DNA from: an uncultured virus (IMG/VR IMGVR_UViG_3300011209_000023)
Lineage: Duplodnaviria > Heunggongvirae > Uroviricota > Caudoviricetes
Virus record (IMG/VR): IMGVR_UViG_3300011209_000023
Reading direction: 5' to 3' (one strand)
Length of the DNA stretch: 28,914 nt
A program made the position numbers and the translations under genes. The notes beneath the pieces were generated by a model. It worked only from the letters and a program-made list of their open reading frames with translations. It searched no databases and was not told where the DNA came from. Below, one piece after another: positions 23,006 through 28,451 of this stretch (its first letter is position 1; each line of letters begins with the position of its first letter).

Positions 23006-23815
23006 TTAAAGGATCGCTACAACGTCTTTTGCGACTTCCCGCGTACTGCTTTTGCAGGAAATCGAACGGCGCGCTTTGATGAATTCCAGGTTAAAACCAT
23101 GCTCCCGGTACAGGTCGAGAACCTTCGGTGCAGATGAGTTAGAAATCACTACCCGAGCGCCACGGTGAAAGGCAGATACACATTGCTTCGCCAGGTCCAC
23201 CTGGTTATCCCAGCTAAAACCACCAGCGGCGTAGGCGGTGAATCCGGTTGTTCCCGGCATCGGTTCGTAAGGCGGATCGCAGTAAACCACATCCCCTTTC
23301 CCGGCCAGGCTGATAGTTCGGCGATAGTCAGCAGTCATGAAGACGCAGTTATGCGCCATAGCCGCGAAGGCTTTCATCTCATCCATCGGGTAATACGGGG
23401 CCTTGTAGCCTCCCCAGCCCACATTGAACTTGTTCGCCTGGTTGTAGCGCATCAGGCCATTGAAACAATGCCGGTTGAGATACAGGAATGCAGCTGCGCG
23501 TTCTGTAGCCTCCAGCGTCTGAGCGTTGAACTCGGAACGGATCAGCTCATAGCCATCTGGTGACCGCATGTGCTCAAACATCCAGCGGGCCTTTAATTCC
23601 ACTTCATCCGGCACCACCGCTAACATCTGATACAGATTAATCAGGTCCGGGTTAACGTCCGCCAGCAGGTAATCTGCGTGCTTATCGCTGTTCAGGAATA
23701 CCGACCCACCGCCAACGAATGGCTCTATCAGACGTTTCCCTGCCGGGATGTGCACGAACAGGTCAGCCAGCTGGGTATACTTTCCACCAGCCCATTTCAA
23801 AAATGGCTTGCTCAT
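23006..23815 (-). CDS. dam: Dam-family DNA adenine methyltransferase
   Basis: FLKWAGGK, EPFVGGGSVF, YLNRHCFNGLMRYN and YCDPPY motifs. Confidence 0.95.
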   Translation of the reverse strand: MSKPFLKWAGGKYTQLADLFVHIPAGKRLIEPFVGGGSVFLNSDKHADYLLADVNPDLINLYQMLAVVPDEVELKARWMFEHMRSPDGYELIRSEFNAQTLEATERAAAFLYLNRHCFNGLMRYNQANKFNVGWGGYKAPYYPMDEMKAFAAMAHNCVFMTADYRRTISLAGKGDVVYCDPPYEPMPGTTGFTAYAAGGFSWDNQVDLAKQCVSAFHRGARVVISNSSAPKVLDLYREHGFNLEFIKARRSISCKSSTREVAKDVVAIL

Positions 23816-25132: not shown

Positions 25133-25594
25133 TCACTTCTTTTTGCGTGCAAATAACGTGATAATTGCCGCAATCTCTTCTTCACGCGCAGCCAAGTGGC
25201 GGCGGTGATGCACCATGATTTCTTCAGCTTCATGTCTTTCGATTACCCCATCCTCAAGTGCCTGTTCGATAATCTGATCAACCTGTCCTCTGGCGGCAGA
25301 GGTACGCATTGCCCGGCTGAACAAGTCCACGCGATCCAGCTCTTCCAGGTGCGGAACATCCACCAGCAGAGCACCACGGCGGCGAGCGAAGTAATCAGCC
25401 AGTAACGACGTGTTGGAAATGTCTTCCATCGCTTCCAGCTCGCTGACTTCGAAGAAACGACAGCCGTTTTTCTCGTAAAGATTGTTGTTAAACTGCGTCA
25501 CCGTCATTCCCAGTGCGCCAGCCATTGCTTCGCGCCCACCTGGATATGCTTTGCACATCGCTTTGACGGCTTCTTTGAGGTTTGGCTCTACCAT
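25133..25594 (-). CDS. ymfL: YmfL-family regulatory protein (CII position)
   Basis: YPGGREAMAGALGMTVTQFNNNLYEKNGCRFF motif; follows cro. Confidence 0.8.
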   Translation of the reverse strand: MVEPNLKEAVKAMCKAYPGGREAMAGALGMTVTQFNNNLYEKNGCRFFEVSELEAMEDISNTSLLADYFARRRGALLVDVPHLEELDRVDLFSRAMRTSAARGQVDQIIEQALEDGVIERHEAEEIMVHHRRHLAAREEEIAAIITLFARKKK

Positions 25595-25628
25595 CTTGAT
25601 TTACCTTTTGTAGTTATCGAATAACCGC

Positions 25629-25871
25629 TTAAGCAGTACGATTATTTGCACTTGGTACGTCATCTGTTTGATAGCGACTTGGGTACAAAATGTGTAATTC
25701 GCTTATTTCTCCTCTAAAGAACTTGGCTAATCTCTCCGCCAGTTCGACAGATGGGACTTGCTCGCATCTTTCAATGCGGCTCAACGTTGCAGGATCTACC
25801 TGTACCCCGGTTGCAACGTGCAATAAGGTCATGCCATGCGATTTTCGCAATTTTCTTAATGGTGATTGCAT
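25629..25871 (-). CDS. cro: Cro-like HTH regulator
   Basis: XRE HTH (VQVDPATLSRIER), divergent from cI, AGGAGG RBS. Confidence 0.88.
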   Translation of the reverse strand: MQSPLRKLRKSHGMTLLHVATGVQVDPATLSRIERCEQVPSVELAERLAKFFRGEISELHILYPSRYQTDDVPSANNRTA

Positions 25872-25885
25872 AACGCCTCCTATTT

Positions 25886-25962
25886 TTGCGTATTACGCAT
25901 GTTATTCCACGCTAGCGAATTGCGCAAGTTGCTTTGCACGAAACGCAAAAACAACATGTAAT
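25886..25962. promoter_or_regulatory. OR region: three 15-bp operators with pR and pRM
   Basis: TTGCGTATTACGCAT (25886), TAGCGAATTGCGCAA (25913), TTGCACGAAACGCAA (25934); pR on minus TTGCGC-17-TAACAT; pRM on plus TTGCAC-17-TGTAAT. Confidence 0.8.
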
Positions 25963-25968
25963 GAGTGA

Positions 25969-26664
25969 ATGAAAATAGGATCTCGCATACGACAACTTCG
26001 CTTAGCGAAGAACATTAAAATCGCAGAGCTTGCAGAAGCTGTGGGCGTTGATGCTGCCAATATTTCCAGGCTTGAAACTGGTAAACAAAAGCAGTTTTCA
26101 GAACAGACACTTAACCGACTTGCTCAAGCTTTAAGCGTAAGTGTACCTGACCTATTTACCTCTGACGAAAATGATACTACTGTACATATAAACAGTGAAA
26201 AATATGCATCTCCCGTAAAGGATGTGGATGTATACAGAGTCGAGGTACTTGATGTGAGCGCAAGCGCCGGGGCAGGACATATACACGGTAGTGACGTCAT
26301 AGATGTCATTCATGCTATCGAGTTCAGCAATGATCAGGCATTGGCAATGTTTGGTGGCAGGACTCCATCTGGAGTAAAGGTCATCAACGTTCGCGGTGAT
26401 AGCATGGCCTCAACGATTGAGCCTGGCGACCTAATCTTTGTGGACGTAACTATCAATGAGTTCGATGGGGATGGGATTTACGTCTTTGGTTTTGATGGAA
26501 AAGTTTATGTTAAACGCCTGCAGATGATACCAGACCAACTGCTAGTCATCTCTGATAACCCTCGTTATAGAGAATGGAATATAACTAAAGAGAATGAACA
26601 CAGATTCTATATCTATGGAAAGGTTTTAATAAGCCAGTCTCAGTCCTTTAAACGGCATGGATAG
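25969..26664 (+). CDS. cI: CI repressor, XRE HTH plus S24 autopeptidase
   Basis: N-terminal HTH; Ala-Gly site (SASAG); catalytic Ser in VRGDSM and Lys in VYVKRL. Confidence 0.95.
   Translation: MKIGSRIRQLRLAKNIKIAELAEAVGVDAANISRLETGKQKQFSEQTLNRLAQALSVSVPDLFTSDENDTTVHINSEKYASPVKDVDVYRVEVLDVSASAGAGHIHGSDVIDVIHAIEFSNDQALAMFGGRTPSGVKVINVRGDSMASTIEPGDLIFVDVTINEFDGDGIYVFGFDGKVYVKRLQMIPDQLLVISDNPRYREWNITKENEHRFYIYGKVLISQSQSFKRHG
26155..26197 (+). promoter_or_regulatory. LexA (SOS) box with overlapping sigma70 promoter inside cI
   Basis: TACTGTACATATAAACAGTG (26178-26197) matches TACTGTATATATATACAGTA at 17/20; TTTACC(26155)-17-TACTGT(26178). Confidence 0.75.
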
Positions 26665-26682
26665 CATTCATCATCATAAACT

Positions 26683-26707
26683 AGGCCTCATTCGAGGCCT
26701 TTTTTTT
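26683..26707 (+). terminator. Terminator after cI
   Basis: AGGCCTC-ATTC-GAGGCCT followed by a T run. Confidence 0.88.
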
Positions 26708-26717
26708 CGCCCTAAAT

Positions 26718-26768
26718 TTGCGTTTTACGCACATAGCTATTGCGTTACTCGCAATTTATGATTATCTT
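26718..26768 (+). promoter_or_regulatory. OL operators and pL
   Basis: TTGCGTTTTACGCAC (26718) and TTGCGTTACTCGCAA (26740) match the OR palindromes; TTGCGT(26740)-17-TATCTT(26763). Confidence 0.8.
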
Positions 26769-26965
26769 CTACTCGTCGGCACATGACGAAACTTACGGAC
26801 AAGGATGAACAGAACACAACATGGAAGAGCATTCCCCTTCTTTCCGGTGGGGATCGGTTTGTAACTGAAGGAGTGCGCTTCCAGTTGTGACGTGTACAAG
26901 CGTACCGCAGCGCCGGTCGACGCAATTTTTAATCCACCCGATAACGGTTTCTTGAGGGTAAACAC

Positions 26966-27325
26966 ATGTCTTCATGTTACGCAGTAGTTTTAAACGGTAA
27001 TACCGAAATTAAATACTTCCCGTTCCACGACTCACGTAGCGCTGACGATGCTGAAGCTATGGCGGATGAGTGGCGCTACAAGGCGATCGACGCTATTGGA
27101 GCGGAAGAGTCTTCTCGCTTCCACTTGCGCGTAGTTCGCCCAAAGGTCGTTTTTCAGCTTCCATCCGGAGCCGTGGTGGAGTGTGACCTTGATGACGTAG
27201 ACATCAACCCGCGAGCCTGCGCCGACCTTGATTACCACCTCTGCGCATTCGGGTTCAATCGTGGTCTTGACTATTGCGGTAACTGGGACTTAGACGGCGC
27301 TGAAATTATCGAATACATCGCATAA
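26966..27325 (+). CDS. Hypothetical acidic protein, first gene of the pL operon
   Basis: 119 aa, GAGGG RBS; family not recognised; no Arg-rich N-like motif. Confidence 0.75.
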   Translation: MSSCYAVVLNGNTEIKYFPFHDSRSADDAEAMADEWRYKAIDAIGAEESSRFHLRVVRPKVVFQLPSGAVVECDLDDVDINPRACADLDYHLCAFGFNRGLDYCGNWDLDGAEIIEYIA

Positions 27326-27533: not shown

Positions 27534-28451
27534 ATGAAATTATCAAAGTTACGTAACGCCATTGTCTATCGGGCTACTTTGCCCAGTATTGAAGCGGTTG
27601 AAGGGCACCTGCAGGAATTGCCATACTCTGAACTTACAGAAACGGAGTTCGCGCGGGCTTCCTTCGTCCCTAACCCGATTACCGGTGAGCTGGTTACGCC
27701 AATTACTGGCGGTTATGCAATCGTGGTTCGCCGCGATGAAAAAATAATCCCCCAGCACGTCGTGATGAAAGAAGCAAATGAGCGTATCCAGCGCATCGAA
27801 AATGCGTGTGGTCAGAAATTGAAGCGCGCTGACCGTAACAACATTATCCAGGATGCTAAGGTTCAGCTATGCAAACAGGCATTCATCAAGTCGTCTCTGA
27901 TCCTGGTCCTGTATAACACTGAAGAAAATCTGCTGATCATTAATTCCGCCAATAAAAATATTGCCAATTTAGTCGGGGCGATGCTGGTTAAAGTGATCGG
28001 CTCAGTCAAAACAGTCACGATCAACATCAGTAATATCAAAAACGGCCTGACAACGCGCCTTAAAAACCATCTGGATGGCGAAGAATCAGCCTTTGCCGGG
28101 TTTGAGGTCGGTGATTATGTCCAGCTATCCCGCCTGGCAGAACAGAAAGAAGTTATTCGCTACTCTGCGGAACACACTTCCGTTACCAGGGAAATTCTGG
28201 AGAGCCTGAACACAGGTTTTATCGTCGATAACATGGAATTAAGAGGCTGTGGCGTCTCTTTTCTGCTTACAGATAAGTTCCATTTCCGGCGGATCGATAC
28301 CAAGGATAATGATTATTCTGATGATGACGACAAAGCCTACCGCTGGCGTCACCAGGCAGGTACGGACATGTTCCAGTTCTGTAAAGTAATTAACCAGCTT
28401 TGTGATCTGCTCGCCTACAAAGAGCCCGAAGAACAAAAACCAGCAGCCTGA
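27534..28451 (+). CDS. rdgC: Phage RdgC-like recombination-associated protein
   Basis: 305 aa; NAIVYR N-terminus, RRDEKIIPQHVV and VSFLLTDKFHFRRI motifs typical of RdgC; GAGGA RBS. Confidence 0.85.
   Translation: MKLSKLRNAIVYRATLPSIEAVEGHLQELPYSELTETEFARASFVPNPITGELVTPITGGYAIVVRRDEKIIPQHVVMKEANERIQRIENACGQKLKRADRNNIIQDAKVQLCKQAFIKSSLILVLYNTEENLLIINSANKNIANLVGAMLVKVIGSVKTVTINISNIKNGLTTRLKNHLDGEESAFAGFEVGDYVQLSRLAEQKEVIRYSAEHTSVTREILESLNTGFIVDNMELRGCGVSFLLTDKFHFRRIDTKDNDYSDDDDKAYRWRHQAGTDMFQFCKVINQLCDLLAYKEPEEQKPAA

Follow-up and report, generated by a model that had tools for sequence, protein, structure and literature searches.

The cI repressor gene of a lambdoid Klebsiella (pro)phage contains, within the linker between its DNA-binding and self-cleavage domains, a predicted operator for the host SOS repressor LexA that overlaps a candidate sigma-70 promoter and is followed by an in-frame ribosome binding site (RBS) and start codon. 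The gene lies on a 28.9-kb stretch of DNA, IMG/VR record IMGVR_UViG_3300011209_000023, which is referred to here in its full length as the window. Together these elements would constitute a nested, LexA-gated unit inside cI that makes a headless CI, consisting of the C-terminal peptidase S24 domain without the helix-turn-helix (HTH), and thereby lowers the pool of functional repressor and favors prophage induction. This reading is considered probable, though well short of certain. A unit of this kind had been proposed in an earlier sequence-only reading of the window; its observations are confirmed by the analysis described here, and its interpretation is partly supported. From the sequence we infer LexA binding, SOS control, translation of the headless product, the poisoning of heterodimers, and the pro-induction direction of the effect.

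Predicted LexA operator and promoter in the cI linker

The candidate operator, TACTGTACATATAAACAGTG, matches the LexA consensus TACTGTATATATATACAGTA, a palindrome of the form CTGT-N8-ACAG with an AT-rich center, at 17/20 positions. This is the score claimed for it in the sequence-only reading, whose coordinates for the box, the promoter hexamers, the GAGGT motif, the GTG codon, and the Ala-Gly site are all correct on the window sequence (Table 1). The box is the sole site in the window with no more than three mismatches to the consensus, and 0/100 shuffled sequences gave any such site. The bare core CTGT-N8-ACAG is not significant alone, with 1 found versus 0.33 expected and at least one present in 29/100 shuffles. 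A 5.6-Mb Escherichia coli chromosome carrying a cI homologue, which served as calibration for the frequency of SOS boxes in a host, contained seven sites with no more than three mismatches, and a reversed-pattern control gave 0. The genes sbmC, umuD, sulA, and dinD each have one of these sites immediately upstream, a DinI-like gene is likewise preceded by one, another falls in the tisB region, and the seventh is inside the cI homologue itself. Judged on this chromosome, LexA-consensus sites of this quality in a host genome are real SOS operators. The box of the E. coli cI homologue, TACTGTATATAAAAACAGTA, is letter for letter the site found at umuD and at sbmC. When this homologue (L102, 6209-6245) was compared with the sbmC promoter-RBS region (L260, 773-813), the 20-nucleotide (nt) box was alike and the likeness extended 8-9 nt past it (AATAATG.AGG), which may be chance or a clue to the origin of the nested unit.

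Conservation of the box was examined in 248 genes extracted from their loci and reduced to 61 representatives with <95% nucleotide identity. The homologues have 56-91% protein identity to the window CI and come from Klebsiella, E. coli, Kosakonia, Citrobacter, Salmonella, Lonsdalea, Kluyvera, Pantoea, and Proteus. Members of the family include the repressors of Salmonella ST64B and Fels-1, Shigella SfII, coliphage mEp460, some Stx2-converting phages, and many Klebsiella prophages, and a homologue with at least 80% of the gene covered is present in 1059/5426 complete E. coli genomes. The homologue alignment that had been suggested as a check shows the CTG-N10-CAG box kept at identical codons in 59/61 representatives, scoring 16-19/20, within an otherwise variable linker. 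The strict box pattern is present in 245/248 genes; the 246th (L061) is off by one flanking base, and the remaining two are from Dryocola. Fels-1 and ENT47670, which are more distant (52-55% identity), carry the box too, each at 17/20. Thr71, Val72, and Ser76 are the only linker positions that do not vary in the protein alignment. At codon 71, all 59 box-bearing representatives use ACT, which makes up 31% of usage in the family; codon 72 is GTA (family usage, 18%) in 57 and GTT in the other 2; and codon 76 is AGT in 59/59 (family usage, 13%). Codon 75 is always NNC (AAC, GAC, CAC, TAC, ACC, TCC, or CCC, encoding Asn, Asp, His, Tyr, Thr, Ser, or Pro), so that the CAG arm of the box is kept while the surrounding linker is free to vary. 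Judged from this silent codon choice, the predicted LexA box is conserved at the level of DNA.

A maximum-likelihood tree placed all box-bearing genes in one clade (support, 100/97). The distribution of the box on this tree needs three label changes, which are read as one gain and two losses, one in Dryocola and one in a long-branched Phaseolibacter homologue. In the latter (L018/L195), loss of the box coincides with loss of the Ala-Gly site and of the two catalytic residues (Ser to Asn and Lys to Arg), and the protein resembles a repressor derivative that has become non-inducible. No LexA-like site was found in the genes of six outgroup repressors with a recognizable cleavage site (PSTCR7lys, PhiR5_1, ST160 c2, HK639, Lambda_4C10, and Mannheimia 535AP1), where the best match was 11-12/20 and none fell in the linker. 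The best match in Stx2_12E129 was 14/20 and lies outside the linker. An origin of the box as the relic of an HTH-umuD fusion was considered and judged unlikely, because box-less P22-type and similar repressors with HTH and S24 domains lie outside the family and the tree favors one basal gain.

The left arm of the operator doubles as a predicted -10 hexamer, TACTGT, 17 nt downstream of the candidate -35 hexamer TTTACC. The spacing agrees with that reported earlier for this pair, and the layout is the same as that read upstream of E. coli umuD, TTGATC-17-TACTGT, in which the hexamers are a reading of the sequence and not a cited mapping. The two share a -35, 17 nt, TACTGT serving as both -10 and operator arm, and a start codon 14-56 nt past the box. 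An approximate sigma-70 score, built on textbook frequencies, had a plus-strand mean of 7.34 over the 59 box-bearing representatives, compared with a background 95th percentile of 6.83; the minus-strand mean was 3.75, and the plus strand exceeded the minus strand in 47/59. The best-scoring recurrent promoter across the homologues was TTTAC(N)-17-TACTGT. Among the box-bearing representatives, 42/59 have TTTACN and 12/59 have TTTATT as the hexamer located 17 nt before the box, and the codon for Phe63 is TTT in 59/59, with TTT used in 36-57/59 at other invariant Phe columns. In three Pantoea-type genes (L012, L129, and L180), TACTGT is weakened to G/CACTGT, and a TATAAT at the center of the box, together with its own -35, scores higher (9.0-10.9).

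A transcription start site (TSS) has been mapped at the corresponding position in Salmonella phage ST64B, whose cI gene (sb38 = STMMW_20241 = SL1344_1967, listed as SL1967) encodes a protein with 72% identity to the window CI. For this gene, supplement 1 of Hammarlof et al. (2018, PMC5856525) lists three plus-strand TSS in strains D23580 and 4/74, assigned by enrichment in terminator exonuclease (TEX)-treated differential RNA sequencing (dRNA-seq) libraries. They are a primary TSS at 2098184 (D23580) and 2072244 (4/74), a secondary TSS 292 nt upstream of the primary one, and an "internal" TSS at 2098405 (D23580) and 2072465 (4/74), which from these coordinates sits 221 nt past the primary TSS in both strains. 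The primary TSS is the A of the ATG, as the -50..+1 string given by Ramachandran et al. (2012, PMC3293720) matches positions 1451-1501 of the extracted ST64B locus (L266). The internal TSS is gene nt 222, an A located 7 nt after TACTGT (L266 1710-1715), which has a 17-nt spacer to TTTACC (L266 1687-1692), and it falls at position 13 of the 20-mer box, within the operator. The predicted LexA operator overlaps the -10 and the start of the internal promoter, in the window by homology only. The start near 26190 that had been anticipated for the window is, by the same homology, the base equivalent to the mapped ST64B internal TSS. This TSS stands unremarked in the supplementary table of PMC5856525.

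Nested start codon and predicted headless product

Beyond the box, the representatives contain in-frame start codons preceded by Shine-Dalgarno (SD) sequences. The energy of the duplex with the anti-SD sequence was computed on the 15 nt upstream of each in-frame ATG, GTG, or TTG. In 59/59 box-bearing representatives, an in-frame GTG or ATG at codon 85, 87-89, 91, or 96 had an energy of -5.7 to -11.9 kcal/mol; the background of 228 other in-frame start-like codons in the family had a mean of -1.7 and a 5% quantile of -5.5 kcal/mol. The two Dryocola genes contain nothing better than -0.7 in the corresponding stretch. Since Dryocola has lost the box and is also without the RBS and start, this co-loss is counted in favor of the nested unit. 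Starts were left unscored in Stx2_12E129, Phaseolibacter, and HK022, in which no cleavage site was found to anchor the scan. Among ten box-less homologues, a comparable start is present only in the Mannheimia phage, and 6/10 have no start stronger than -4.3.

In the window clade (14 representatives), codons 90-96 (AGA GTC GAG GTA CTT GAT GTG) are near invariant in nucleotide sequence. Only codon 91 varies (GTC in 12 and GTT in 2), and codon diversity is 0.08-0.11 at codons 90-96, compared with 0.4-0.6 in the rest of the C-terminal domain. The GAGGT-7-GTG96 start put forward in the sequence-only reading is thus fixed at the nucleotide level within this clade but does not extend to the others, which start at codons 85, 87-89, and 91, with codon 88 being GTG, or ATG in Pantoea, and each start having its own SD. 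A codon-96 start as a family-wide feature was rejected, as codon 96 elsewhere is usually GTT, GTC, GTA, ATC, or ATT and GAGGT is absent. Outside the window clade, GTG96 with a strong SD occurs only in the neighbors L001, L109, and L141, and GTG96 with a weak SD occurs in some Pantoea-type genes. One Pantoea gene contains the rare codon pair AGG AGG, with AGG AGG GAG GGA GCA preceding ATG ATG. As read from these genes, the conserved feature is an RBS and start after the box, whose position turns over, rather than codon 96. A synonymous-recoding control using family codon usage gave p = 0.01-0.24 for box-bearing lineages versus 0.92-1.0 for the box-less pair, and p = 0.022 for the window start. 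The predicted leader measures 28-64 nt across the family and 64 nt in the window. Positions 26222-26257 of the window also contain an out-of-frame open reading frame (ORF) of 11 codons (ATG ... TGA), which ends in ATGTGA and overlaps GTG96 (GTGA). A stop/start overlap of this sort is of the coupling type and is not present in all clades (L002 is without the TGA).

The product predicted from GTG96 would run for 136 amino acids from Val96 (read as Met) to Gly231 and would contain the whole S24 domain and no HTH. A structural model made with 24 diverse sequences had a mean predicted local distance difference test (pLDDT) score of 68 (core, 64-92), and its best structural matches were LexA C-terminal domains, UmuD', and the lambda CI C-terminal domain. 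Among solved chains, UmuD/UmuD' come nearest in sequence to the C-terminal part (E 1.4e-5). Membership in the UmuD family itself was rejected, with a score of 35.8 bits for NCBIfam NF007621 against a cut-off of 110. The number of residues before the cleavage site varies across clades from 4 to about 15, and because the length of this arm varies, the comparison suggests that the core domain, not the N-terminal arm, matters in the headless product.

Proposed mechanism and competing explanations

In an undamaged lysogen, LexA would hold the internal promoter low, and full-length CI would be made from a probably leaderless transcript of the maintenance promoter PRM. The full-length cI mRNA of the window probably starts on the A of the ATG, because its TGTAAT-6 nt-ATG geometry equals that of ST64B, whose primary TSS has a 0-nt 5' untranslated region. 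DNA damage would deplete LexA, whereupon the sigma-70 promoter TTTACC-17-TACTGT, with its -10 and start covered by the LexA operator, would fire. The internal transcript would carry its leader, GAGGT, and GTG96 and would end at the cI terminator, which is predicted to be common to the full-length and internal transcripts. Its translation would yield headless CI as a complete S24 and oligomerization domain without an HTH. The C-terminal domains of S24 repressors mediate dimerization and cooperativity, and in classical reports free C-terminal fragments are negatively dominant, while truncated LexA or CI can cleave in trans. On these grounds headless CI would most likely mix with full-length subunits, leaving fewer DNA-binding-competent dimers and tetramers, and, together with RecA-stimulated cleavage of CI, the mixed oligomers would make induction of the prophage sharper and more committed. 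An unlikely extension, put forward tentatively, is that headless CI acts as a trans-acting, SOS-timed signal across the immunity family, mixing with the repressors of co-resident relatives and synchronizing or sabotaging their induction. The C-terminal S24 half has a mean column identity of 82% over 24 diverse sequences, and E. coli genomes carry up to 4 matching places, so that the fragment could mix across different operator specificities. On this extended reading, headless CI may also come from PRM transcripts, since the full-length mRNA is probably leaderless and the nested start has a strong SD, and the LexA-set proportion of headless to full-length CI would then be the true analogue variable of the switch.

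Gene-level expression values for Salmonella strain 4/74, which bear on SOS control only indirectly, are available as transcripts per million (TPM) for peroxide shock and for the base medium InSPI2 (Canals et al. 2019, PMC6333337 supplement 5). Among SOS genes, peroxide shock raised sulA from 30 to 1292 TPM (43-fold), recN from 18 to 413, umuD from 9.9 to 116, and dinI from 325 to 1160. The ST64B cI gene rose from 168 to 634 TPM, and SL1344_1966, which is divergent from cI (the cro side by gene order), remained at 3.2 to 8.0 TPM. According to Owen et al. (2020, PMC7067206), ST64B shows no lytic expression in 4/74 under peroxide shock. An increase of repressor-gene RNA during SOS without induction is as an internal LexA-controlled promoter would predict. 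The small RNA (sRNA) STnc1310, which is induced with ST64B under peroxide, was considered and rejected, as it lies 326 nt past the cI stop, outside cI. For the window itself, cI is present in RNA-library contigs of runs X2 and X4, and contigs cannot show a start; two raw-read RNA runs (X21 and X23) yielded 0 reads and carry no weight either way. The contig from run X2 spans 25543-26669 at a depth of 185, with nothing on 26670-26851; its end fits termination at the cI terminator, and it does not resolve an internal start. A second RNA contig from the same run (25543-25616, with 3 differences) branches inside the cII-like gene at a depth of 326 versus 185, which suggests a related second prophage in the sample.

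Several observations weigh against the LexA-gated nested unit. At the promoter, TTTACC-17-TACTGT scores 8/12 in a simple promoter scan, below the calling threshold of 9/12, though it is consistently the best one across homologues, and conservation of the -35 is weak evidence because the hexamer is encoded by the invariant Phe63. The ST64B internal TSS was called also in conditions without deliberate SOS induction, and the SL1344 dRNA-seq tables of PMC3293720 list no internal TSS in ST64B cI. The promoter usage values (PUV) of PMC5856525 are the TPM of the first 10 nt, with PRM read-through included, and are for that reason uninformative on the strength or regulation of the internal promoter. 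NaCl shock also raised ST64B cI, from 225 to 778 TPM (3.5-fold), while sulA went from 44 to 106 TPM and sulA and umuD changed only about 2-fold (PMC6333337). The rise under peroxide therefore need not stem from the internal promoter, and gene-level values cannot decide SOS induction; the NaCl response is read as an osmotic or supercoiling effect on the ST64B immunity region. At the nested start, recoding p values for single lineages reach 0.24 and cannot be multiplied because the lineages are related, the purine-rich codons of an acidic, glycine-rich linker favor SD-like strings, and the box-less outgroup Mannheimia phage has ATG87 at -6.0. In the predicted product, a codon-96 start leaves only 4 residues ahead of Ala100-Gly101, and the model has low confidence over its first 23 residues and is poor over its last 8.

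The alternative that survives best keeps the same nested unit and has headless CI stabilize lysogeny, as a decoy or buffer for activated RecA (RecA*) that would retain the RecA*-binding surface and the cleavage site, compete with full-length CI for RecA* filaments, and raise the damage threshold in the manner of Hex, a protein co-transcribed with the 434 repressor that blocks RecA-stimulated cleavage (PMC3564112). Most clades start at codon 85-91, 9-15 residues before the Ala-Gly site, and could supply a cleavable UmuD-like substrate; the closeness of the C-terminal part to UmuD/UmuD' and the rise of cI RNA in 4/74 under peroxide while the prophage stays repressed point the same way. In the window clade, however, the start lies only 4 residues before the cleavage site, suggesting that the arm is dispensable; moreover, a higher threshold could be reached directly by tuning the cleavage rate, and ST64B is described as inducing faster than the Gifsy prophages (PMC12626290). 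A lysogeny-stabilizing role is accordingly regarded as rather unlikely.

It is very unlikely that LexA inside cI acts as a roadblock or tuner of transcription from PRM and PRE, tying cI dosage to LexA, with the internal start and RBS as by-products. This possibility had been listed in the sequence-only reading; the operator lies 210 nt into the transcribed gene, and the increase in cI RNA under peroxide shock would also fit relief of a block. It leaves unexplained the primary 5' end located 7 nt after TACTGT in ST64B, as well as an in-frame RBS and start that persist despite turnover of their position and are co-lost with the box. LexA is not known to be an efficient block to elongation. There is likewise only a slight chance that the SOS-induced internal transcript acts as RNA, either as a decoy or as the precursor of a 3'-end-derived sRNA at the cI terminator, where a strong hairpin directly follows the window cI. 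By analogy, an sRNA, svsR, has been reported from the 3' part of cI in E. coli prophage NC-SV, and some such sRNAs are described in the same paper as coming from internal promoters, the control of svsR being left there to clarify (PMC12803456). However, svsR was itself defined by a 58% match over 77 nt, and a noncoding role would not explain the conserved in-frame RBS and start.

A LexA-controlled promoter on the minus strand, firing toward cro and interfering with PRM or bypassing CI repression, is hardly credible: a simple scan did call TTCACT-17-TATCAT on that strand (9/12), with the box in its spacer, and a palindromic operator gives a -10-like arm on either strand, but minus-strand scores are low, the hexamers of the antisense promoter proposed earlier are not conserved across the 59 representatives because its -35 would fall in the variable linker, and the TSS tables for D23580 and 4/74 contain no minus-strand start within ST64B cI, their sole antisense-flagged entry under this gene being the plus-strand start 292 nt upstream (PMC5856525).

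Genomic setting and comparison with known systems

The window is derived from a lambdoid Klebsiella (pro)phage, and 18 Klebsiella phage records match positions 25600-26800 at 98.8-99.3%. The CI protein consists of an HTH domain (residues 3-64), a linker (about 65-90), and a peptidase S24 domain (99-219). It matches Pfam HTH_3/HTH_31 (HTH_3, 42.9 bits; cut-off, 23) and Peptidase_S24 (74.1 bits; cut-off, 23.3; E 9.7e-21). With both domains, the Ala-Gly site, and the Ser/Lys dyad present, the window CI is predicted to be a repressor of the self-cleaving type. The ORFs flanking cI encode a cro-like HTH protein, a CII-like protein, a replication-type protein, a 119-amino-acid product, and RdgC (Table 1). 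The CII-like regulator is of the phage 186 type within an otherwise lambdoid immunity region, and the late genes are HK97-like. Dyads of the type TTGCG-N5-CGCAA are repeated on either side of cI (25885-25960 and 26716-26760), for example, TTGCGTATTACGCA, TTGCGTTTTACGCA, and TTGCGTTACTCGCAA, and are probably the CI/Cro operators OR and OL. The terminator expected 3' of cI was found there as a hairpin followed by a T-run.

Table 1. Features of the nested unit, the cI gene, and its surroundings in the window
Feature	Position	Strand	Remarks
LexA (SOS) operator TACTGTACATATAAACAGTG, predicted	26178..26197	palindromic	cI linker codons 70-77
Internal promoter -35 TTTACC, predicted	26155..26160	+	codons F63-T64
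Internal promoter -10 TACTGT, predicted	26178..26183	+	left operator arm; 17-nt spacer from TTTACC
Internal transcript start, predicted	26190	+	gene nt 222; by homology to ST64B
Shine-Dalgarno GAGGT	26242..26246	+	7 nt before GTG; anti-SD duplex energy -7.2 kcal/mol
Nested in-frame ORF, predicted	26254..26664	+	GTG codon 96 to cI stop, 136 aa
cI repressor gene	25969..26664	+	231 aa; ORF list, Pfam, PHROG "transcriptional repressor"
Ala100-Gly101 autocleavage site, predicted	26266..26271	+	A100, G101 invariant in protein alignment A1
Catalytic Ser145 (GDSM)	26401..26403	+	invariant in protein alignment A1
Catalytic Lys182 (VKRLQ)	26512..26514	+	invariant in protein alignment A1
PRM -10 TGTAAT, predicted	25957..25962	+	6 nt before A of cI ATG; from ST64B geometry
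Intrinsic terminator	26683..26708	+	hairpin 26683-26700, 7-bp stem, 5 G-C pairs, then T-run
cro-like HTH gene	25629-25871	-	divergent from cI
186-type CII-like gene	25133-25594	-	divergent from cI; Phage_CP76, E 3.4e-15
119-aa ORF	26966-27325		precedes RdgC gene; no Pfam or PHROG match
RdgC-family gene	27534-28451		early-left operon downstream of cI; Pfam E 3.2e-35

Headless CI would resemble UmuD in architecture, with just an S24 domain preceded by a short arm that contains the cleavage site. Unlike umuD, the unit would sit in frame within the coding sequence of a larger repressor, and a family search of the ORFs beyond position 23800 showed no umuC-type gene beside cI. Tum of phage 186 and AntC of N15 are LexA-controlled antirepressors. 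The Gifsy antirepressors GfoA, GftA, and GfhA act in trans on co-resident prophages (PMC3121763, PMC7067206). The proposed unit resembles these systems in placing a phage gene under a LexA operator, with a product that would be expected to inactivate a repressor. The known antirepressors are separate small genes, whereas the unit described here is nested in cI with its own predicted promoter and operator. They serve repressors that are not self-cleaving, whereas the Ala-Gly site and the Ser/Lys dyad are intact in the window CI, and the part of antirepressor would be played by the C-terminal domain of CI itself, read in the same frame. With Hex of phage 434, too, the PRM transcript of a lambdoid repressor gene yields a second protein, one that modulates RecA-stimulated repressor cleavage. 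In contrast to the nested unit, Hex is encoded in a different frame 3' of cI, with a partial overlap; it lacks a dedicated promoter and LexA operator, and it inhibits induction (PMC3564112).

The immunity region shares with the switches of lambda, P22 c2, and HK022 the divergent cI and cro genes, operators on both sides, a probably leaderless cI mRNA, and a repressor with HTH and S24 domains; identity to P22-type c2 and similar repressors is about 40%. It differs from the lambda-type outgroup repressors with a recognizable cleavage site in its LexA-like linker site and in its internal RBS and start, the latter being found among them only in Mannheimia. Outside the phage switches, the Tn5 inhibitor is made within the transposase gene by its own promoter and start. 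Like the proposed headless CI, it is a shorter isoform without the N-terminal DNA-binding part that acts via mixed oligomers; in the case of cI, the SOS repressor of the host would govern the internal promoter, within a prophage switch.

No prior description of a LexA-controlled in-frame gene nested within cI was found in the literature searched, and the nested unit is not mentioned in the available parts of the ST64B transcriptomics papers or of the phiNP/Stx preprint (10.1101/2025.01.01.630987). LexA-controlled antirepressors and self-cleaving repressors are already known; a LexA operator-promoter with an in-frame start in the repressor's own linker is new. It also offers a clean case of a regulatory element kept through codon-choice selection in a protein linker. 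In textbook form, SOS induction of such phages has a single input, RecA-stimulated cleavage of CI. If the nested unit works as proposed, the switch would respond to the two arms of SOS, RecA* activity and LexA depletion, and would produce an isoform of its repressor that acts dominantly. Such a mechanism would matter for induction thresholds and spontaneous induction, for cross-talk among co-resident prophages, and for the mobilization of prophage-borne genes by SOS-triggering antibiotics.

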